Of a stretch of DNA of 64,000 nt, positions 3,739-48,424 are shown piece by piece. Position 1 is the stretch's first letter. Each line of letters begins with the position of its first letter. The translations under genes and the position numbers were made by a program. The notes beneath the pieces are model-generated. The model ran no database searches and was not told the DNA's origin. It saw only the letters and a program-made list of their open reading frames with translations. Source of the DNA: Escherichia coli (GTDB lineage: Bacteria; Pseudomonadota; Gammaproteobacteria; Enterobacterales; Enterobacteriaceae); NCBI RefSeq assembly GCF_024502345.1, contig NZ_JALDNN010000001.1; one strand, written 5' to 3'.

Positions 3739-4185
3739 TTACATACTGATTGGCAACGCCATGATGATGGCGTCTTCGCGACCGTCCGTGGTGGGGTAGT
3801 AATTGCGGCGAATCGTCGCCTCGTTAAAGCCTAAACTTTCGTACAGGGCAATGGCGGCAGCATTTGAAGCACGGACTTCCAGCCATAGTGTCGCCACGCC
3901 GCGTTTTTCCAGTTCGTCGATCAGATGTTCCAGCAGCGCCCTTCCCAATCCCTGACGCTGATAGTCAGGATCGACCGCAATATTGAACAATGTAGCTTCA
4001 TCCAGCACCACTTGCGTAATCGCAAACGCCGCCATTTTGCCGTTTTGCGTTAACTGAAAGTTGAGATAACGCTCGCCCTGGTTGCTGGCAAACGTTTTTT
4101 CACTCCACGGAAAGGCGTGGGCGCGTTGTTCAATGTGGTAAGCCGCTGGTAAATCAGTCGTTTCGAGGGAAGAAATCGTGTTCAT
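3739..4185 (-). CDS. rimI: Ribosomal protein S18 alanine N-acetyltransferase
   Basis: 148-aa GNAT-family ORF ([10 protein letters not shown] motif) in the conserved rimI position. Confidence 0.9.
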
Positions 4186-4567
4186 ATGTGCAAATTTGTT
4201 GCCATAACGCGGCGCGTGCCGTTGGGTTTGCCCGTAAATCGGTGAGCGCCGGTGATGCCACCTGAGCGCCTTCCAGTGATAGCGGTTCGTCAGTACCCAA
4301 CCGCCAGCTGTTGCAGCGACTGCCTTGCGGCAGCATCGCGATTTTTTCTGGCGTCAGTTGCAGCACTTGATCGGGGCTGACGGTTAATGCGCGCAGAACA
4401 TCGCTCACTAAAGGATCAGTCAGGGCGGGAAGATCGTTTGCCACCATCACCAGACGGACGTGTGCCGGGATCGCAATGGCAATCTCCCCCTGCAACGCGC
4501 CAGGGCGACGCAGCGACCACTGGGTAATGCCCAGTTGCTGTAACTGCCAGTCTCGTCGGGATGTCAT
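4154..4567 (-). CDS. holD: DNA polymerase III psi subunit
   Basis: 137-aa ORF overlapping the rimI start, matching the holD-rimI arrangement. Confidence 0.85.
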   Translation of the reverse strand: MTSRRDWQLQQLGITQWSLRRPGALQGEIAIAIPAHVRLVMVANDLPALTDPLVSDVLRALTVSPDQVLQLTPEKIAMLPQGSRCNSWRLGTDEPLSLEGAQVASPALTDLRANPTARAALWQQICTYEHDFFPRND

Positions 4568-5968: not shown

Positions 5969-6055
5969 GCGAAGGTGGCGGAATTGGTAGACGCGCTAGC
6001 TTCAGGTGTTAGTGTCCTTACGGACGTGGGGGTTCAAGTCCCCCCCCTCGCACCA
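5969..6055 (+). tRNA. leuQ: tRNA-Leu (anticodon CAG)
   Basis: 87-nt sequence gcgaaggtggcggaattggtagacgcg...tcgcacca with CAG anticodon loop and long variable arm; first of three tandem copies. Confidence 0.9.
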
Positions 6056-6083
6056 AAAACCACGTTGATATTGCTCGCACTGG

Positions 6084-6170
6084 GCGAAGGTGGCGGAATT
6101 GGTAGACGCGCTAGCTTCAGGTGTTAGTGTTCTTACGGACGTGGGGGTTCAAGTCCCCCCCCTCGCACCA
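6084..6170 (+). tRNA. leuP: tRNA-Leu (anticodon CAG)
   Basis: Second tandem copy; differs from copies 1 and 3 by one base (tgttctt vs tgtcctt) in the variable region. Confidence 0.9.
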
Positions 6171-6204
6171 AACGAGGCGATATCAAAAAAAGTAAGATGA
6201 CTGT

Positions 6205-6291
6205 GCGAAGGTGGCGGAATTGGTAGACGCGCTAGCTTCAGGTGTTAGTGTCCTTACGGACGTGGGGGTTCAAGTCCCCCCCCTCGCACCA
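6205..6291 (+). tRNA. leuV: tRNA-Leu (anticodon CAG)
   Basis: Third tandem copy, identical to copy 1. Confidence 0.9.
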
Positions 6292-7532: not shown

Positions 7533-8210
7533 TTAATAGGGATGCAACACATTACTTGTTTCGCAATGCCGCATACATAACAGAATATCTGCGGCCTCCA
7601 ACAACCCTGCGTCAGAACTGACGCCCAGTTTCGACATCACATTAAATTTATGTGCACGGATCGTTTTGATATTGCGTTTAAGCTGCTCGGCAATTTGTGT
7701 CATTGAGTAGCCACGCGACATAAAGCGCAATATTTCTCTCTCCGTCGGGCTTAACGTCCGGCTTTGGTTAATGTACCACTGATTGTTCAGTCGGTCGGTC
7801 GCCTGACGTACACCATTTAATGACAAAAAGAGTTCCTGATGAAAAATCTCCAGCGTTGACGCTTTACTTAATACACCGTCCAGCGGTGATGGCGACAATG
7901 AACCAATCAGCCGAGCTTCAATATCATCATCCGCAATAACTAAACGCCGGGTACGCGGAAACTTAATCGCCAGTTCAGTCAGGCAAGATAATCCCTCTCT
8001 GCGCTCACTTCTCATGGCAGAAAAAGAAAAAATGACCGCCGCAAACGAGATCCGCGACATGGCATCCTGAAATGACTCCTGACTGGTATAGGTATGGAGC
8101 TTATAAGGGTTGCCCGCAAACTTTCTGAATAAACTCTCAATACCGATACTACTCATGACGCATTTTTCTATGAGTGCGACATTTCTCTTCTTAATTCGGC
8201 AGTGTTCCAT
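7533..8210 (-). CDS. bglJ: LuxR-family transcriptional activator BglJ
   Basis: 225-aa ORF with C-terminal LuxR-type HTH ([25 protein letters not shown]); overlaps the yjjQ 3' end. Confidence 0.85.
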
Positions 8211-8371
8211 TCTGCGGCATCTCCATAAACAGAAGGCAAGTTAAGTTCTCTTGCACCCTGCGCGCTATTTATCCATGCATACATTTCAGCGTTGCTGTGA
8301 ATTGCCAGTCGACGCATCGCACTGTTTTTTTGGGCGCTGATAGTTTTATTACTTTTCTTAAGCAATGAAGC
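8168..8371 (-). pseudogene. yjjQ: yjjQ 3' fragment (C-terminal 67 codons), separated from the 5' part by IS30
   Basis: Encodes ...[65 protein letters not shown]. Together with 9593-10116 (minus the 2-bp duplication) it restores a 726-nt, 241-aa LuxR-family gene. Confidence 0.85.
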
Positions 8372-9592
8372 TGTAGATTCAATTGGTCAACGCAACAGTT
8401 ATGTGAAAACATGGGGTTGCGGAGGTTTTTTGAATGAGACGAACATTTACAGCAGAGGAAAAAGCCTCTGTTTTTGAACTATGGAAGAACGGAACAGGCT
8501 TCAGTGAAATAGCGAATATCCTGGGTTCAAAACCCGGAACGATCTTCACTATGTTAAGGGATACTGGCGGCATAAAACCCCATGAGCGTAAGCGGGCTGT
8601 AGCTCACCTGACACTGTCTGAGCGCGAGGAGATACGAGCTGGTTTGTCAGCCAAAATGAGCATTCGTGCGATAGCTACTGCGCTGAATCGCAGTCCTTCG
8701 ACGATCTCACGTGAAGTTCAGCGTAATCGGGGCAGACGCTATTACAAAGCTGTTGATGCTAATAACCGAGCCAACAGAATGGCGAAAAGGCCAAAACCGT
8801 GCTTACTGGATCAAAATTTACCATTGCGAAAGCTTGTTCTGGAAAAGCTGGAGATGAAATGGTCTCCAGAGCAAATATCAGGATGGTTAAGGCGAACAAA
8901 ACCACGTCAAAAAACGCTGCGAATATCACCTGAGACAATTTATAAAACGCTGTACTTTCGTAGCCGTGAAGCGCTACACCACCTGAATATACAGCATCTG
9001 CGACGGTCGCATAGCCTTCGCCATGGCAGGCGTCATACCCGCAAAGGCGAAAGAGGTACGATTAACATAGTGAACGGAACACCAATTCACGAACGTTCCC
9101 GAAATATCGATAACAGACGCTCTCTGGGGCATTGGGAGGGCGATTTAGTCTCAGGTACAAAAAACTCTCATATAGCCACACTTGTAGACCGAAAATCACG
9201 TTATACGATCATCCTTAGACTCAGGGGCAAAGATTCTGTCTCAGTAAATCAGGCTCTTACCGACAAATTCCTGAGTTTACCGTCAGAACTCAGAAAATCA
9301 CTGACATGGGACAGAGGAATGGAACTGGCCAGACATCTAGAATTTACTGTCAGCACCGGCGTTAAAGTTTACTTCTGCGATCCTCAGAGTCCTTGGCAGC
9401 GGGGAACAAATGAGAACACAAATGGGCTAATTCGGCAGTACTTTCCTAAAAAGACATGTCTTGCCCAATATACTCAACATGAACTAGATCTGGTTGCTGC
9501 TCAGCTAAACAACAGACCGAGAAAGACACTGAAGTTCAAAACACCGAAAGAGATAATTGAAAGGGGTGTTGCATTGACAGATTGAATCTACA
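8372..9592 (+). mobile_element. IS30: IS30 insertion sequence (1221 bp) with 2-bp GC target-site duplication
   Basis: Left end tgtagattcaattggtcaacgcaacag, right end ...attgaatctaca (inverted repeat); flanking GC at 8370-8371 and 9593-9594; single 383-aa transposase. Confidence 0.9.
8434..9585 (+). CDS. insI: IS30-family transposase
   Basis: 383-aa ORF with N-terminal HTH and DDE region (HWEGDLV...), recognised as the IS30 transposase. Confidence 0.9.
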
Positions 9593-10116
9593 GCTATCTG
9601 GTTGATGCCCCATCCTTTACCTAGTAGCCGCAGTACCTTGCGCTCTGAAAGAGTGAGAATGACGGAGCGATAGCTAAAATCATGAGTTTCAGTCATTGCC
9701 GGGGAGGTCAGCATGGTGCTGATACGCTCTGCGTGCGTATTGCCGGAACGTACGGTCTTGACCAGATTCTCAATGGGTTCAACATCAGACAATAACGTCG
9801 CCGTAGGGCACATGAGTAATTCTACTGCCTGGGAATACCAGGAGCGTGACACCATGAAAACCCAGTGAATTTCCCGATATTGTGAGATTAAAGAATAATA
9901 ATGTTCACAAACAGAACGTGGATCTTCACTTTCACCGGCTAAATCAGCAATGACTAATCCGGAACGACGTAATTGTAATAAGGTAAGGTTCTCCGCAGAG
10001 GCGCTGGATATTATTTCATATTCAGGGAAGTGAGTCCTCATGACCTCTTTTAACCCTGCTTGCATAACAGGTATTTTACTGATAACAATTCCATTTTTGC
10101 AGCATCCTGGCAACAT
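9593..10116 (-). pseudogene. yjjQ: yjjQ 5' fragment (N-terminal part), interrupted by IS30
   Basis: [25 protein letters not shown]...GWGINQIA then reads into the IS30 end. Confidence 0.85.
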
Positions 10117-10736
10117 ATTTCCTCCACATCCACTGTCTAAAAATTATGATGGTTTATTCAGGATATTCATTCCTTAAATGTTTCCAGCAAATTAATAGAT
10201 TAAGCGAATAAATTATCCTTAGCATTCACTTTCATATCAGCATACTCCTGCTGCACAACAACTCCACTGCATGTGTCAGAAGGTTAGCATCAAATGATAA
10301 CCTGGTGAAATAGCCTGGAGACATTTAAAATATCTACATTAAGTTGTTAGGGATACTTAATGAAAAACAGAAATCACATTCATTTAATTTATAATTAAAT
10401 GATATCCCTTCCCGCAGAATGCGGGAATCACACAATCAATATTTATTCAATAAAATCTGATGATTTTAACTTGTTAACACTAAAAAACGCGCCCAGCTAT
10501 CTATTATCCTGACCCGTAAAGGCTAAAACAATAAATTCATTATAGTGATAATATTCATGTGATAGTTTGTTTGCGGCGAGAGATAATTCGCTTTTTATCA
10601 CCGAGCTTGTCCCGATAACCAGGATTAATCAGCGCAATTTTGATCTTAACCTACCGCAAAACAACCGTGCTTCATGATACAAATGGATTCTCATTATCTG
10701 AACAATACGCAGCACGTCTATGACAAAGGGCGAGTT

Positions 10737-11507
10737 ATGCAAACTGAGCAACAGCGAGCCGTAACACGGCTTTGTATCCAGTGTGGATTATTTCTTTTGC
10801 AACATGGTGCGGAAAGCGCGTTGGTTGATGAGCTTTCCTCACGACTGGGTCGGGCGCTGGGAATGGACAGTGTCGAAAGTTCTATCTCTTCGAACGCCAT
10901 AGTGCTGACAACTATTAAAGATGGGCAATGCCTGACATCGACACGTAAAAATCACGATCGCGGCATTAATATGCATGTGGTGACTGAAGTCCAGCACATT
11001 GTGATTCTTGCGGAGCATCATCTGCTGGATTACAAAGGCGTAGAGAAACGATTTAGCCAAATTCAGCCATTACGTTACCCAAGATGGCTGGTAGCCTTAA
11101 TGGTTGGCCTTTCTTGCGCCTGTTTCTGTAAACTCAGTAACGGTGGCTGGGATGGTGCCGTCATCACCTTCTTTGCCAGTACGACCGCGATGTATATCCG
11201 CCAGCTGCTGGCACAACGTCATCTTCATCCACAGATCAACTTTTGCCTTACCGCTTTCGCCGCCACCACCATTTCCGGATTGCTTTTGCAACTCCCCACT
11301 TTCAGCAATACCCCCACCATTGCGATGGCCGCCAGCGTTCTGCTGCTGGTGCCGGGCTTTCCGTTGATTAATGCCGTCGCCGATATGTTTAAAGGCCACA
11401 TCAATACCGGACTGGCACGCTGGGCGATCGCCAGTCTGCTGACACTGGCTACCTGCGTCGGCGTAGTGATGGCACTGACGATTTGGGGTCTACGCGGATG
11501 GGTGTGA
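10737..11507 (+). CDS. yjjP: Inner-membrane protein YjjP (ThrE-family exporter-like, DUF1212)
   Basis: 256 aa from the internal Met [12 protein letters not shown]...; conserved position divergent from yjjQ. Confidence 0.8.
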
Positions 11508-43111: not shown

Positions 43112-44385
43112 TGGCAGGGTTAAATAAATATCAGGCGTATCCGGAGTATAGGGATTCTGGGGTGGAGTGGTTGGGGGAGATTCCTGCTCATTGGGAAACG
43201 TTACAGCATAAATACGTCGCATATTATACTAAGGGCAAAAATCCTTCTTTTTTGCTCGATACCCCAACAAAGAACACCCTACCTTATCTTTCTATGGATT
43301 GTTTAAGAAATAACTCCATAGATAAATATGCTATAGTATCTAATGATATTCGTATTGCATTAGAGGGACAACCACTTATTATTTGGGATGGTTCTAATGC
43401 TGGGGAATTTGTCAAAGGCCGAAAAGGTATTTTATCCTCAACGATGGCCTCTGCAACGCTTAATTATCCTTTGCACATGCAATATTACTGGTATTTATGC
43501 ACTGCAATTGAATCTGAAATGCGTAAACATGCAAATGGTATGGGTATCCCTCATGTAAATGGAGAAGAATTAAAGAACATTCATCTAAGTATCCCTTCAA
43601 TAACCGAACAAAAAAGCATCGCTGGTTTTCTTGAATTTGAAACAACGAAAATTTCGAACCTTATAGAAAAACAACAACAACTAATTGAATTACTAAAAGA
43701 AAAACGTCAGGTCGTGATTAGCCATGCGGTCACAAAAGGGCTAAATCCTGACGTGCCGATGAAAGATTCTGGGGTTAAGTGGTTGGGGGAAGTTCCAAAA
43801 CACTGGCACATATGCAAGTTAAAATGGTTTGCTAATTTGAAAAGTGGTGATTTTATAACCAGCAATTCAATAGAACCAGAAGGAAACTATCCTGTATATG
43901 GTGGAAATGGATTAAGAGGATATTATTCTTATTTTACACACAATGGTGAATATGTTCTTATTGGTAGACAAGGTGCTCTTTGCGGAAATATAAATTACGC
44001 AATTGGAAAGTTTTGGGCTTCAGAACATGCTGTTGTTGTCACCCCAAACGAAAGAGCTGTTACAATATGGTTAGGAGAATTATTAAGAATAATGAACTTA
44101 AACCAATATTCAGTTTCTGCTGCACAACCGGGGCTTGCGGTTGAAAGAATTACTGATTTATATATTCCAATCCCACCATATCAAGAGCAAATAAATATCG
44201 GAACTTATATATCTAAATATATTTCTCTAGATAAAAAATTGATTGAGCATAGTACAGATAATATTGAACTCCTCAAAGAACGCCGCACCGCCCTTATCTC
44301 CGCCGCCGTCACCGGCAAAATTGATCTACGCAACTGGACCGCGCCCATCCCCGAAGCGGAAACACCCACGGAGGCCAGCGCATGA
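43111..44385 (+). CDS. hsdS: Type I restriction-modification specificity subunit
   Basis: 424-aa ORF with internal duplication (RDSGVEWLGEIPAHWE / KDSGVKWLGEVPKHWH; LIELLKEKRQVVIS / NIELLKERRTALIS) and two AT-rich target-recognition domains; start overlaps the hsdM stop. Confidence 0.85.
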   Translation: MAGLNKYQAYPEYRDSGVEWLGEIPAHWETLQHKYVAYYTKGKNPSFLLDTPTKNTLPYLSMDCLRNNSIDKYAIVSNDIRIALEGQPLIIWDGSNAGEFVKGRKGILSSTMASATLNYPLHMQYYWYLCTAIESEMRKHANGMGIPHVNGEELKNIHLSIPSITEQKSIAGFLEFETTKISNLIEKQQQLIELLKEKRQVVISHAVTKGLNPDVPMKDSGVKWLGEVPKHWHICKLKWFANLKSGDFITSNSIEPEGNYPVYGGNGLRGYYSYFTHNGEYVLIGRQGALCGNINYAIGKFWASEHAVVVTPNERAVTIWLGELLRIMNLNQYSVSAAQPGLAVERITDLYIPIPPYQEQINIGTYISKYISLDKKLIEHSTDNIELLKERRTALISAAVTGKIDLRNWTAPIPEAETPTEASA

Positions 44386-47300
44386 GCCACGACATTACAA
44401 AAGAGGTTAACCTGCAAAACGACATCATCGCGCAGATGGTGGAAAAAGGCTGGATTGTCGGCAAAGGTGACGGCTACGACCGGGAACGTGCGCTATACGC
44501 ACAGGATACCTTAAACTTCGTGCAGACCACTCAAACGCAGGAGTGGGAGAAATTCGCCCGCGTTTACCCTAACGACCCAGAGCGCCATTTCCTCGACGCG
44601 CTGGTCGCGCAGCTTAAAAAAGCCGACAGCAACGCCACCGATATCCAGTCGCGCACCTGGGGTACGCTCGGCGTACTTCGCCACGGTCTGAAAATCCGCA
44701 ATGCCCGTTTTTCGCTGTGCCAGTTTAAACCGGAACACAACCTCAACCCGGAAACGCTGGCGCGCTATCAGCAAAATATCTGCCGTATCGTGCCGGAACT
44801 GGTCTACAGCCCTTATGCCTCAAATAGCGTCTTTGCAGAAACGGGCGTGAAAGCCAAAAAATGGCGCATCGACCTTGTGCTGTTTATCAACGGCCTGCCA
44901 ATTGCCACGCTGGAGCTGAAATCCGAATTTAAACAGGCGGTGCAGAACGCCATTGCGCAGTACAAAAAGACCCGCCTGCCGAAAGATCCCGCTACCAATA
45001 AACCTGAACCGCTGCTGGCCTTTAAGCGCGGGGCGCTGGTGCATTTTGCCGTCAGCCAGTATGACGTCTTTATGACCACCAAACTCGCAGGTGACAGCAC
45101 CTTCTTCCTGCCGTTTAACAAAGGCACCAAAGAAGGCGGTGCAGGCAATGAGATCCCCGAAGATACTCGCCGCTACGCCACCGATTATCTGTGGAATGAA
45201 GTGCTGCTGCCGGACAACTTATTAAAAATCCTCGCCAGTTTTGTCCATTTGCAGATTGAAGAAAAAGAGGAGTGGAACGGGCTGAAAGCGAAGAAAGAGA
45301 GCCTGATTTTCCCGCGCTATCACCAGTGGGATGTGGTCAACAAACTGCTGGAGGCTGCGACGGTCGAAGACACCGGCCATAAATACCTGATTCAGCACAG
45401 CGCAGGTTCCGGAAAGTCGAACTCCATTGCCTGGACCGCCCACCAGCTCTCTCGTCTGTACGACGCAAACGGGGAAAAACAGTTCCACTCCGTTATCGTG
45501 GTGACAGACCGCACGGTGCTGGACGACCAGCTTCAGGACACCATCTGGCAGTTCGAACATGCCGACGGCGTGGTCGGGCGCATCAATAACAGAGAGGGCG
45601 ACGGCTCTAAATCGGAAAAGCTCGCCAACGCGCTGGAAAACTCGCAACCGATTATTATTGTCACCATCCAGACGTTCCCGTTCGTATTGAAAGCTATCGA
45701 AAACAGTGTCAGCCTGAAGCAGCGTAAATACGCGGTAATCGCCGATGAAGCGCACTCCTCGCAGAGCGGTTCTACCGCCCGTCAGCTCAAAGAAGTGCTG
45801 ATGAGCGAAGAGATGGATGATGACGTGGTACTGTCGTCAGAAGATATTCTGGATGCGACCATCGCCGCACGGAAAGGTAGCAGTAACCTGAACTACTATG
45901 CCTTTACCGCCACGCCCAAATCCAAAACCCTGGAACTTTTTGGTCGCCGTCCACGTCCCGATGAACCGGCGTCAAAAACCAATAAACCTGAGGCCTTCCA
46001 CGTCTACTCCATGCGCCAGGCAATCGAAGAAGGCTTTATCCTCGACGTGCTGAAAAACTACACCAACTACAAAGTGGCGTATCAGTTGCTGCAAAAGCTG
46101 GAAGATGAAGACCGCGAAGTCGATAGCAAACGGGCGAAGGTAAAACTCAATCAGTGGGTGACACTGCACGACCACAATATCTCGCAGAAGGTGAAGGTGA
46201 TTGTGGAGCACTTCCGCAAACATGTGATGCATCTGCTTGGCGGCCAGGCTAAAGCGATGGTGGTCACCAGTTCACGCAAAGCCGCCGTGCGCTATAAGCT
46301 GGCATTTGATAAATACATTAGCGAGAACAATTACCAGAAAATCAGCGCGATGGTGGCGTTTTCCGGGGAAGTTGAATTCCGGGAAGGCGACCCTAACAGC
46401 CTGGCATTGTTAAACCAGAAATTTACTGAAATAAACATGAACCCCGGCCTGAAAGGACGGGATATGCGCAAAGCCTTCGACAGCGACGATTACCAAGTCA
46501 TGCTGGTCGCCAATAAATTCCAGACCGGTTTTGACCAGCCGAAGCTGTGCGCGATGTACGTGGATAAAGCCCTCGGCGGCGTCGAGTGTGTGCAGACGCT
46601 CTCCCGCCTGAACCGCACCTATCCGGGCAAAGCGGAATCTGGCACTTTTGTCCTCGATTTTTATAATGATCCGGACGAGATCCTCGGCGCATTCCAGCCC
46701 TATTTCCAGACGGCGGAACTGACCGATGTCAGCGATCCGCAGCAGGTATTCGATCTGTTTGAAAAACTGCGCGCCACGCAGATTTTTCAGTGGCATGAAG
46801 TCGAGCAGTTCTGCGAGGCATACTTCATCAAAAATAAATCGAATGCGGCGATCAGTAATATTTGCAAACCGGCGGTCGAACGCTGGAAAAAGCGTTATCT
46901 GATGGCGATAGACGCCTATTTGACCGCCAAAGAGATGTTCGAGCGCACCAAAAAAACGGGCGATACAGTATTAATCACCAATGCGGAAAACAGTTTTAAA
47001 GCCTGTAAGCAGGAGAAAGATCGTCTGGAAATATTCAAAAAAGATCTCGGCAGCTTTGTTCGTTTTTATGAATTTATGTCGCAGATCGTTGAATACGATG
47101 ACAAGGATCTGGAAAAGCTAAGCCTGTTTGCTCGTCATCTGCGTCCGCTGCTGCATGAGCAACGTCTGGAAGATGATGAAATTGATCTCAGTAATGTGGA
47201 GATGAGTCACTATCGTTTATCGAAAATCCATGAGCAAGATTTACGCTTACAGGAAGAAACGCCTGACTATACGCTGGATGCAAGTAATAATATTGGTACG

Positions 47301-47645
47301 GCAAAAGCGAAAGATAAAAAAGAGGAGTTTTTATCTCAGGTGCTTTCTCGGATGAATGAATTATTCATTAGTGACCATTTGACCGACAAAGATATGATCA
47401 GCAATGCTTTTTCGGTGTATAACAAAATAACTGAAAATGAAAATGTTATGACACAAATTAAAAACAATCCCCCAGAACAAGCGATTCTTGGTGATTTCCT
47501 CCAGGCAGTTGATAATGCTGTAATGGACAGTAATGACGCTCGGCAAGAATTCATGTTGCAATATTTATCCGATCCAGCTCGGGCAAAGGGCTTTGCTTAT
47601 CTGATGTTTGATATGCTAACGGGGAAAATTGCTTTGCCAACATAA
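44382..47645 (+). CDS. hsdR: Type I restriction endonuclease subunit (SF2 helicase/nuclease)
   Basis: 1087-aa ORF with helicase motif I SAGSGKSNS and motif II IADEAHSSQ; ATGA overlap with hsdS. Confidence 0.85.
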   Translation: MSHDITKEVNLQNDIIAQMVEKGWIVGKGDGYDRERALYAQDTLNFVQTTQTQEWEKFARVYPNDPERHFLDALVAQLKKADSNATDIQSRTWGTLGVLRHGLKIRNARFSLCQFKPEHNLNPETLARYQQNICRIVPELVYSPYASNSVFAETGVKAKKWRIDLVLFINGLPIATLELKSEFKQAVQNAIAQYKKTRLPKDPATNKPEPLLAFKRGALVHFAVSQYDVFMTTKLAGDSTFFLPFNKGTKEGGAGNEIPEDTRRYATDYLWNEVLLPDNLLKILASFVHLQIEEKEEWNGLKAKKESLIFPRYHQWDVVNKLLEAATVEDTGHKYLIQHSAGSGKSNSIAWTAHQLSRLYDANGEKQFHSVIVVTDRTVLDDQLQDTIWQFEHADGVVGRINNREGDGSKSEKLANALENSQPIIIVTIQTFPFVLKAIENSVSLKQRKYAVIADEAHSSQSGSTARQLKEVLMSEEMDDDVVLSSEDILDATIAARKGSSNLNYYAFTATPKSKTLELFGRRPRPDEPASKTNKPEAFHVYSMRQAIEEGFILDVLKNYTNYKVAYQLLQKLEDEDREVDSKRAKVKLNQWVTLHDHNISQKVKVIVEHFRKHVMHLLGGQAKAMVVTSSRKAAVRYKLAFDKYISENNYQKISAMVAFSGEVEFREGDPNSLALLNQKFTEINMNPGLKGRDMRKAFDSDDYQVMLVANKFQTGFDQPKLCAMYVDKALGGVECVQTLSRLNRTYPGKAESGTFVLDFYNDPDEILGAFQPYFQTAELTDVSDPQQVFDLFEKLRATQIFQWHEVEQFCEAYFIKNKSNAAISNICKPAVERWKKRYLMAIDAYLTAKEMFERTKKTGDTVLITNAENSFKACKQEKDRLEIFKKDLGSFVRFYEFMSQIVEYDDKDLEKLSLFARHLRPLLHEQRLEDDEIDLSNVEMSHYRLSKIHEQDLRLQEETPDYTLDASNNIGTAKAKDKKEEFLSQVLSRMNELFISDHLTDKDMISNAFSVYNKITENENVMTQIKNNPPEQAILGDFLQAVDNAVMDSNDARQEFMLQYLSDPARAKGFAYLMFDMLTGKIALPT

Positions 47646-47658
47646 AAATACGTTAATA

Positions 47659-47684
47659 GCCGGGGTCGCACTTTCTACCCCGGC
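47659..47684 (+). terminator. Hairpin (gccggggt / accccggc) just after hsdR
   Basis: 8-bp GC-rich stem 14 nt after the hsdR stop; weak T run. Confidence 0.3.
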
Positions 47685-47710
47685 CATATTATTTACAATA
47701 AGGAATAGCT

Positions 47711-48424
47711 ATGCTGAAGATGATTAAAGATTTTAAATTCAAAAAATACATTAAAAAATTACGTGAAGAAGGTTTGTTATTTTATGTTTCTTTCGGGTTT
47801 ATATTTACATTGTTAATGGAAGTTGATGATCGATTACCGTACTATCTTCAACAAGACTTCTTTTTTTATACACTTATAGGATTTATGCCAATCAATATAT
47901 TCTTTGTTTTGATTTGCACATATATATTTTTCAATGCCGTCCATGCGCTTATTTCACCATATAAATTTCAAAGAATTGGTGAGAAATTCCTCTCTGAACT
48001 TGATAAAAGAACACAACAAATTGGCTTTATTATTTCATTCATATGTTTTGGCATGACTTTGTTTTGTGCACTGGTGTGGTTGCTGTTTTTTGAAATGAAT
48101 ACTGAAAGTTACTACGCAAAATATACATTAAATTTTTTAGCTGCTTTTATCATTATGATTATAATTTCTTCAGTAGTTAATCCAGTAATGAACAGAACAT
48201 TCCAAAAAATGAAGGAATCGGACTCACATGGAAATTCAAAAATAATTCTTATAATTATAATCATTATATTGTTGCTATTATTACCAATTGCGTGCATTAT
48301 CAATAAAAATAAAACAATTGAAATCAATATTAAGAAAGAAACCTATCAGCAAATAAAAGAAAAAACAAAGATAAAACCAGAAGATTATATCAAAAAATTG
48401 ATTACTGATATTAAATTCAACTAA
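47711..48424 (+). CDS. Hypothetical AT-rich integral membrane protein (about five TM helices), no recognisable family
   Basis: 237-aa ORF with about 28 % GC beside roughly 50 % GC neighbours; hydrophobic helices such as FFFYTLIGFMPINIFFVLICTYIFF and IILIIIIIILLLLLPIACII; Lys-rich termini; aagga SD 7 nt upstream. Confidence 0.5.
   Translation: MLKMIKDFKFKKYIKKLREEGLLFYVSFGFIFTLLMEVDDRLPYYLQQDFFFYTLIGFMPINIFFVLICTYIFFNAVHALISPYKFQRIGEKFLSELDKRTQQIGFIISFICFGMTLFCALVWLLFFEMNTESYYAKYTLNFLAAFIIMIIISSVVNPVMNRTFQKMKESDSHGNSKIILIIIIIILLLLLPIACIINKNKTIEINIKKETYQQIKEKTKIKPEDYIKKLITDIKFN

Follow-up and report, generated by a model that had tools for sequence, protein, structure and literature searches.

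The yjjQ gene in the window (the whole 64-kb stretch of Escherichia coli DNA that was analysed) is split within codon 175 by a complete copy of IS30, and an insertion at the same dinucleotide and in the same orientation is found in two other E. coli genomes. We regard it as likely, with modest reservations, that an ordinary IS30 insertion, accompanied by loss of YjjQ, silencing of bglJ and recurrence at a hot spot, is the whole explanation. Specifically, an intact, canonical IS30 would have inserted by copy-out-paste-in transposition into the yjjQ coding sequence with its usual 2-bp duplication, halving the LuxR-type helix-turn-helix and thereby abolishing YjjQ. The neighboring bglJ gene would be left intact but promoterless, dependent on transcription from the yjjQ promoter; such transcripts would have to cross 1.2 kb of untranslated antisense IS30 after a stop codon at position 9505, leading to strong polarity, and IS30 itself would supply no useful promoter in the direction of bglJ. 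The predicted net outcome is loss of YjjQ together with loss or strong reduction of LeuO-inducible BglJ, and the recurrence in two other strains would reflect sequence-directed choice of hot spots by IS30. An IS knockout with a polar effect on the next gene is a textbook event, and the same allele already exists in two RefSeq genomes, where the yjjQ halves are called pseudogene fragments.

Anatomy of the insertion

With respect to the element and its junctions, the following features were located in the window:

8372..9592, plus strand: complete IS30, 1221 bp (length and ends read from the sequence)
8372..8397, plus strand: left inverted repeat of IS30 (IRL), facing bglJ; 23/26 match to the reverse complement of 9567..9592
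9567..9592, minus strand: right inverted repeat of IS30 (IRR), facing the yjjQ 5′ fragment and yjjP; outward TTGACA at 9574..9579
8370..8371, no strand: left copy of the GC target duplication (2 bp); the same GC is present in both other carrier genomes
9593..9594, no strand: right copy of the GC target duplication (2 bp)
8434..9585, plus strand: intact IS30 transposase gene, 383 aa (ORF list; Pfam HTH_38 and rve)

The preliminary description had proposed a complete 1221-bp IS30 at 8372-9592 with a 2-bp GC duplication, and both proposals held: the length is exact, the transposase is intact, and GC directly flanks the element at 8370-71 and 9593-94. The element begins with TGTAGATTCAATTGGTCAACGCAACA, and its far end is an inverted copy in which 23 of 26 positions match, defining 26-bp imperfect repeats. 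The transposase gene is the sole long ORF within IS30, and its product contains HTH_38 (1.6e-23) and rve, or integrase core (4.1e-14), domains. Length (~1.2 kb), imperfect inverted repeats of ~26 bp, target duplication of 2 bp and a single-ORF transposase of the HTH and DDE type all correspond to the characteristics of the IS30 family. Moreover, several RefSeq E. coli genomes contain copies with 100% identity to the sequence, which is also 99.9% identical over 1221 bp to the copy in K-12 MG1655 and free of any difference from a copy in NZ_CM194533 that is annotated as ‘IS30-like element IS30 family transposase’ (WP_001254932.1).

In comparison with the IS30 of E. coli K-12, the window element shares length, repeats, duplication size and a 383-aa HTH_38 plus rve transposase, and it shows no differences of kind; what is unusual is its location alone, which is occupied in 2/5426 complete genomes. 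The IS30 sequence as such occurs at 9755 places in 3824 of these 5426 genomes, and the element itself is therefore commonplace. IS30 is a copy-out-paste-in DDE transposon, and with its ORF and both ends intact the window copy is presumed to be transposition-competent. In a search of the 64-kb window, the end sequence was present at only two places, which indicates a single element with neither another IS30 copy nor a dimer or composite transposon.

Among the IS30 copies examined, the one in the window included, 15 of 22 displayed 2-bp duplications. Copies lacking a matching 2-bp duplication included those designated L015 (NZ_AP017620), L016, L019 (NZ_CP087294), L020 and L022. The flanks of the IS30 copies in L015 and L019 are the halves of a perfect palindrome (CATCAAGAGCGCG GT on one side and AC CGCGCTCTTGATG on the other) located inside ISEc31/IS3-family remnants, and flanks of this kind are the mark left by inversions that IS30 mediates, or by IS30 copies recombining at hot spots within other IS elements.

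The interrupted gene is present as two fragments:

9593..10116, minus strand: yjjQ 5′ fragment, codons 1-174 plus 2 bases of codon 175 (ORF list and reassembly)
8168..8369, minus strand: yjjQ 3′ fragment, from the remainder of codon 175 to the stop, with the second half of the GerE helix-turn-helix (reassembly)

When 8372..9594, comprising the IS and one GC, is deleted in silico, the minus strand regains an ORF of 241 aa, whereas deletion of IS30 alone gives a frameshifted ORF of 208 aa. The exact rejoining of the fragments into a 241-aa LuxR-family gene upon removal of the duplication, as well as the antiparallel orientation of IS30 (transposase on the plus strand, yjjQ-bglJ on the minus strand), had both been put forward beforehand and are upheld here. 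The reassembled product differs from the annotated YjjQ of strain ML35 by 2 substitutions (N43D, T134A), and its GerE/LuxR-type helix-turn-helix spans residues 153-206 (Pfam). The earlier placement of the break ‘after codon 175’ can be given more precisely: it lies between bases 2 and 3 of codon 175 (Ala, GCT, separated as GC and T), in the middle of the DNA-binding domain. Its sequence, its domains and its gene neighborhood all identify the interrupted gene as yjjQ.

On either side of these fragments lie the following features:

7533..8210, minus strand: bglJ, intact, 225 aa (ORF list; GerE domain 1.2e-12)
10117..10736, no strand: divergent yjjQ-yjjP intergenic region, containing the native yjjQ-bglJ promoter region (gene order of annotated relatives)
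10737..11507, plus strand: yjjP, divergent neighbor, intact (ORF list; annotation transferred from the two other carrier genomes)

The gene order of the region is standard for E. coli and comprises rsmC, three tRNA-Leu genes, yjjZ, fhuF, bglJ-yjjQ on the opposite strand, yjjP, yjjB, dnaT and dnaC; the order fhuF, bglJ-yjjQ, yjjP is the same as in annotated genomes, as is a 43-bp overlap of the start of bglJ with the 3′ end of yjjQ. The three tandem tRNA-Leu(CAG) genes, leuV, leuP and leuQ, occupy window positions 5969..6291, with identity over 89 bp between the first copy and the third.

Elsewhere in the window, a variable defence island is present at 37605..48424, the position of the E. coli immigration-control region. 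It contains a GmrSD-family type IV restriction enzyme (38565..40481, minus strand; Pfam GmrSD_N/C; PADLOC Orf5, 6.6e-217) and a type I restriction-modification system consisting of an unusually long HsdM of 784 aa (40757..43111), HsdS (43111..44385) and an HsdR of 1087 aa (44382..47645). The scores of HsdM and HsdR are lower than the curated cut-offs of NCBIfam, and HsdS matches none of its entries. A 244-aa ORF at 37605..38339 on the minus strand yielded no Pfam, NCBIfam or PADLOC match. The hpa operon is also present in the window.

Predicted consequences for YjjQ and BglJ

The reading frame of the yjjQ 5′ fragment extends into IS30 and terminates at 9505, which yields a 203-aa chimera of 175 native and 28 IS-encoded residues. 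Because the GerE helix-turn-helix is halved and at most this truncated chimera is left, YjjQ is almost certainly null as a DNA-binding regulator. The equivalent 5′ fragment is annotated by PGAP as a pseudogene ‘missing C-terminus’ in both other carriers. In the same two genomes, PGAP also places a short partial ‘hypothetical protein’ at 4183..4266 (approximately 8354..8437 of the window), spanning the left end of IS30 from the yjjQ side to the start of the transposase gene; this call is probably an annotation artefact.

In terms of bglJ, the coding sequence is undamaged. Its start lies 161 bp from the left end of IS30, and a GGAG ribosome-binding site can be read from the sequence ~10 nt 5′ of its ATG. 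The product differs from the annotated ML35 BglJ at 2 amino acids. One of these is at codon 4 (window position 8201), where the window encodes Cys4 and ML35 Ser4, and the two other carriers share the ML35 base; the second is T218A. That yjjQ and bglJ form one operon, as the preliminary description had it, agrees with the literature: in the passages of PMC5025477 and PMC3950696 that cite Stratmann 2008, they are treated as a single operon that is repressed by H-NS and activated by LeuO, and control by H-NS and LeuO is extended to the divergent yjjP where PMC5025477 and PMC2646131 refer to the same study. Constitutive expression of bglJ has been described only where a transposon supplies the transcription from upstream, as in the mini-Tn10 allele yjjQ/bglJ-Y6::mTn10 (PMC6698644, PMC3950696). 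The dependence of constitutive expression on mini-Tn10 suggests that bglJ lacks an effective promoter of its own.

With the insertion in place, the distance from the native promoter region, which holds the sole promoter known for bglJ, to this gene is increased by 1223 bp. The stop at 9505 would be followed by ~1.3 kb of untranslated antisense IS30, from which strong polarity on bglJ is expected. Rho-dependent polarity of IS insertions classically arises where a premature stop leaves a long stretch of RNA untranslated. The minus strand of IS30 showed no hairpin resembling an intrinsic terminator.

The question of whether IS30 could itself drive bglJ turns on the orientation of its ends. In IS30-type elements the outward −35 sits in the right inverted repeat, and the internal antisense promoter (bases ~730-760) has no measurable influence on adjacent genes, according to a review (PMC9330008). 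In the window, the IRR accordingly carries a perfect TTGACA (9574-79) that is directed into the yjjQ 5′ fragment and yjjP, where its best −10 partner is TCTGGT. Since this outward −35 lies in the right end and points away from bglJ, it would provide bglJ with no useful promoter. At the end facing bglJ, only a TTGACC-17-CATTGC hybrid of IRL and junction could be read from the sequence, and its −10 is poor (2/6). No sigma-70-like site directed toward bglJ was detected at the standard threshold on the minus strand from 9592 to 8210, and a laxer hexamer scan returned just two weak 8/12 pairs, although such scans are crude and missed even the published antisense promoter of IS30. An outward promoter element with a usable partner hexamer beside bglJ, which we took as the mark of IS-mediated activation, was thus not found. 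The preliminary description had offered two outcomes for bglJ, silencing or control by outward IS30 transcription; taken together, the evidence favors silencing, and bglJ is probably silent and no longer inducible by LeuO.

These features set the window allele apart from its closest known relatives. As in yjjQ/bglJ-Y6::mTn10, a transposon within yjjQ/bglJ uncouples bglJ from its H-NS-repressed native promoter (PMC3950696, PMC6698644). However, mini-Tn10 drives constitutive bglJ expression, whereas the IS30 of the window presents its left end, for which no outward promoter is documented (PMC9330008). As an outward promoter at this end is neither documented nor detectable, silencing would be expected, the opposite of the mini-Tn10 effect. 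Insertion sequences are likewise known to alter expression in the H-NS-silenced bgl network (PMC2646131, PMC9678765), but those elements insert upstream of a promoter and relieve silencing by H-NS, while the IS30 described here interrupts a coding sequence and separates the gene downstream from its promoter.

Two other readings of the effect on bglJ have to be weighed against silencing. One holds that the insertion activates bglJ as a natural counterpart of bglJC, with transcription starting in the antisense promoter of IS30 or at the IRL hybrid, escape from H-NS, switching on of the BglJ-RcsB regulon (bgl, leuO and others) and recurrence as a product of selection. Several observations are in keeping with this reading: a transposon in yjjQ/bglJ does render bglJ constitutive (PMC3950696, PMC6698644), the antisense promoter reads toward the IRL and hence in the direction of bglJ (PMC9330008), the IRL carries an outward TTGACC, all three natural insertions share one orientation, and bglJ has kept its GGAG ribosome-binding site. 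Nonetheless, we consider it quite unlikely, given that the antisense promoter leaves neighboring genes measurably unaffected (PMC9330008), that the −10 available to the TTGACC of the IRL is CATTGC, and that the bglJ strand is devoid of promoter-like sites at the standard threshold. In addition, 3 known carriers against 5399 uninterrupted genomes are unlike the distribution of a selected allele, and an orientation shared by three insertions has a chance probability of 0.25. The other reading is that polarity is leaky, such that read-through from the native promoter across IS30 keeps bglJ under reduced H-NS/LeuO control and only YjjQ is lost. The lack of an intrinsic-terminator-like hairpin on the IS30 minus strand and the ribosome-binding site of bglJ are compatible with this possibility, but the long untranslated stretch after the stop at 9505 provides the classical Rho-dependent condition. 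Moreover, in K-12 the BglJ made by even the intact operon under LeuO induction is insufficient for activation of its targets (PMC5025477), so that reduced read-through would be functionally negligible; on balance, leaky polarity seems unlikely.

Assuming that bglJ is silenced as proposed, the visible effects are expected to be small. Under laboratory conditions H-NS already keeps the locus silent, and little visible phenotype is therefore expected there; because LeuO induction of the intact operon gives too little BglJ, the phenotypic cost in the laboratory is likely nil.

Recurrence and choice of target

Recurrence of the insertion in other strains is an addition to what the preliminary description contained. 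When the empty site was searched as a 600-bp query in 5426 complete RefSeq E. coli genomes, it was uninterrupted in 5399. The occupied site was found in just two of these genomes, NZ_CM194533 (L001; food container, Hungary) and NZ_AP028094 (L002; strain JNE132847, human, Japan). Both carry IS30 at the identical GC and in the orientation seen in the window, and in both PGAP calls the yjjQ halves pseudogene fragments. An exact scan for the junction 30-mer showed it to be absent from GTDB representative genomes and JGI metagenomes, and no mention of IS30 in yjjQ was found in the literature searched.

Other interruptions of the operon were seen in the same survey. The empty-site query was split or partial in ~22-29 of 5424 genomes, which suggests that the operon is occasionally struck by other elements too; in NZ_CP083497.1 (strain elppa6), IS1A lies inside the yjjQ-bglJ locus. 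None of the 5426 complete RefSeq E. coli genomes represents the lineage of the window; over 20 kb, the highest identity was 98.8% (PapM-32-1, baboon), and most strains matched at ~98.4-98.5%.

With respect to ancestry, the three pairwise comparisons of the window, NZ_CM194533 and NZ_AP028094 gave 128, 206 and 134 differing positions over 9.6 kb of flanking sequence. The flanks of the two genomes are 1.3-2% different from those of the window, and the IS copies differ at 0-1 base. Close to the element, two positions distinguish the window from both carriers, one 5 bp from the IRL (position 8366, T versus C) and one 30 bp from the IRR (position 9624). ML35, whose yjjQ is uninterrupted, has T at 8366 as well, which marks this allele as a standing polymorphism rather than a mutation acquired after insertion. 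The haplotype of NZ_AP028094 has uninterrupted twins, 100% identical over 1 kb, in many other strains, and the closest uninterrupted relatives of NZ_CM194533 and the window are 99.6% and 99.5% identical, respectively. On this evidence, neither carrier is closely related to the window, nor are the two closely related to each other. The presence of the same insertion on different yjjQ haplotypes points to at least two independent insertions, and the most parsimonious account is that at least two, and probably three, such events took place at one dinucleotide.

It is against this background that a single ancestral insertion, spread by descent or recombination among the three carriers and requiring no hot spot, has to be considered. 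Position, orientation and duplication are identical in all three, the IS copies are identical or 1 base apart, and NZ_CM194533 and NZ_AP028094 show no differences from each other within 100-136 bp of the element, all of which would follow from common ancestry. However, for co-transfer to have occurred by homologous recombination, crossovers no more than 5 bp and 30 bp away from the element would have been required, and the differences at 8366 and 9624 leave too little homology for this. The T at 8366 is a standing polymorphism shared with uninterrupted ML35, the NZ_AP028094 haplotype exists elsewhere in uninterrupted form, and ~16 differences within the IS would be expected at the 1.3-2% rate of the flanks, where 0-1 is observed. 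We therefore hold a single ancestry to be improbable. NZ_CM194533 and NZ_AP028094 may owe their insertions to one event shared by these two only, which would still leave at least two insertions overall. An assembly error that misplaced an IS30 copy can practically be discounted: IS30 is a multicopy element (9755 places in 3824/5426 genomes), and such repeats are the usual site of assembly errors, but the 2-bp duplication is perfect, the gene is restored exactly and in frame, and both junctions are identical in two independently sequenced complete genomes.

Three carriers on three haplotypes share one dinucleotide, which fits the repeated independent insertion expected of a hot spot. The targets known for IS30 are of two types, sites adjoining the ends of the element itself and hot-spot sequences that are close to palindromic, and insertion occurs with a 2-bp stagger (PMC9333248). 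The left flank of the yjjQ site, TTAAGCAA(T/C)GAA followed by GC (also read as TCTTAAGCAA(T/C)GAA followed by GC), resembles natural IS30 flanks such as TTAAACAACGCT and TTAAACAACGCA, which are followed by GG and GT, respectively. Further natural left flanks similar to that of yjjQ are TTTTAAACAACGCT, preceding GG, and TCTTAAACAACGCA, preceding GT, and the right flank of yjjQ is similar to other IS30 flanks ending in TTGAT.

In a non-circular matrix, the yjjQ site came 2573rd among the 62,748 positions of the window (top 4%) and 87th among the 1361 that fall in yjjQ-bglJ; this matrix is our own model rather than the Olasz 1998 consensus and was built from 21 half-sites (flanks from IS30-only searches plus the non-extended side of earlier hits), a small sample in which several sites lie in related IS3-family sequences. 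A 24-bp target consensus for IS30 was reportedly published by Olasz in 1998 in Mol Microbiol. A matrix made from the ten best BLAST hits, which had ranked the yjjQ site 4th of 62,748, was rejected as circular because its flanks had been ranked by their BLAST resemblance to those of yjjQ. The site is thus weakly compatible with the preference of IS30, yet it is not singled out by our own model.

The orientation is common to all three carriers, for which the chance probability is 0.25 (n=3); a symmetric target would not predict one shared orientation. Set beside known natural hot spots of IS30, such as the LHS of phage lambda (33244-33498), the yjjQ site has the 2-bp stagger and a left flank resembling those of other natural insertions, but its match is modest (top 4% by the non-circular matrix), and the comparison with LHS is not quantitative, the exact insertion dinucleotide being absent from the paper used. 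Overall, recurrence and flank resemblance suggest that the codon-175 site is likely a modest natural hot spot for IS30. A much bolder proposal would combine an undescribed IS30 hot spot at codon 175 with an oriented insertion serving as a selected, recurrent switch of the YjjQ/BglJ-RcsB module, in which the flhDC repressor YjjQ is removed and bglJ is re-wired or, at its boldest, activated by read-out from IS30. We regard this proposal as very improbable, slightly more so than activation of bglJ as set out above, and retain the ordinary insertion described at the outset.

Implications

For the strain itself, the sequence predicts the lack of a functional YjjQ. As YjjQ is described as a repressor of flhDC and other loci in the part of PMC5493358 that cites Wiebe 2015, a repressor of flhDC would be lost. 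The strain is also predicted to be without LeuO-inducible BglJ and would thus have no BglJ-RcsB route by which to wake the silent bgl operon or leuO. The insertion would be of interest in this respect only if bglJ proved to be switched on, and it would otherwise matter little beyond the annotation of the strain. For IS30, the recurrence at one dinucleotide offers a small natural example of target choice, and the site may serve as a test substrate for target recognition by the element.
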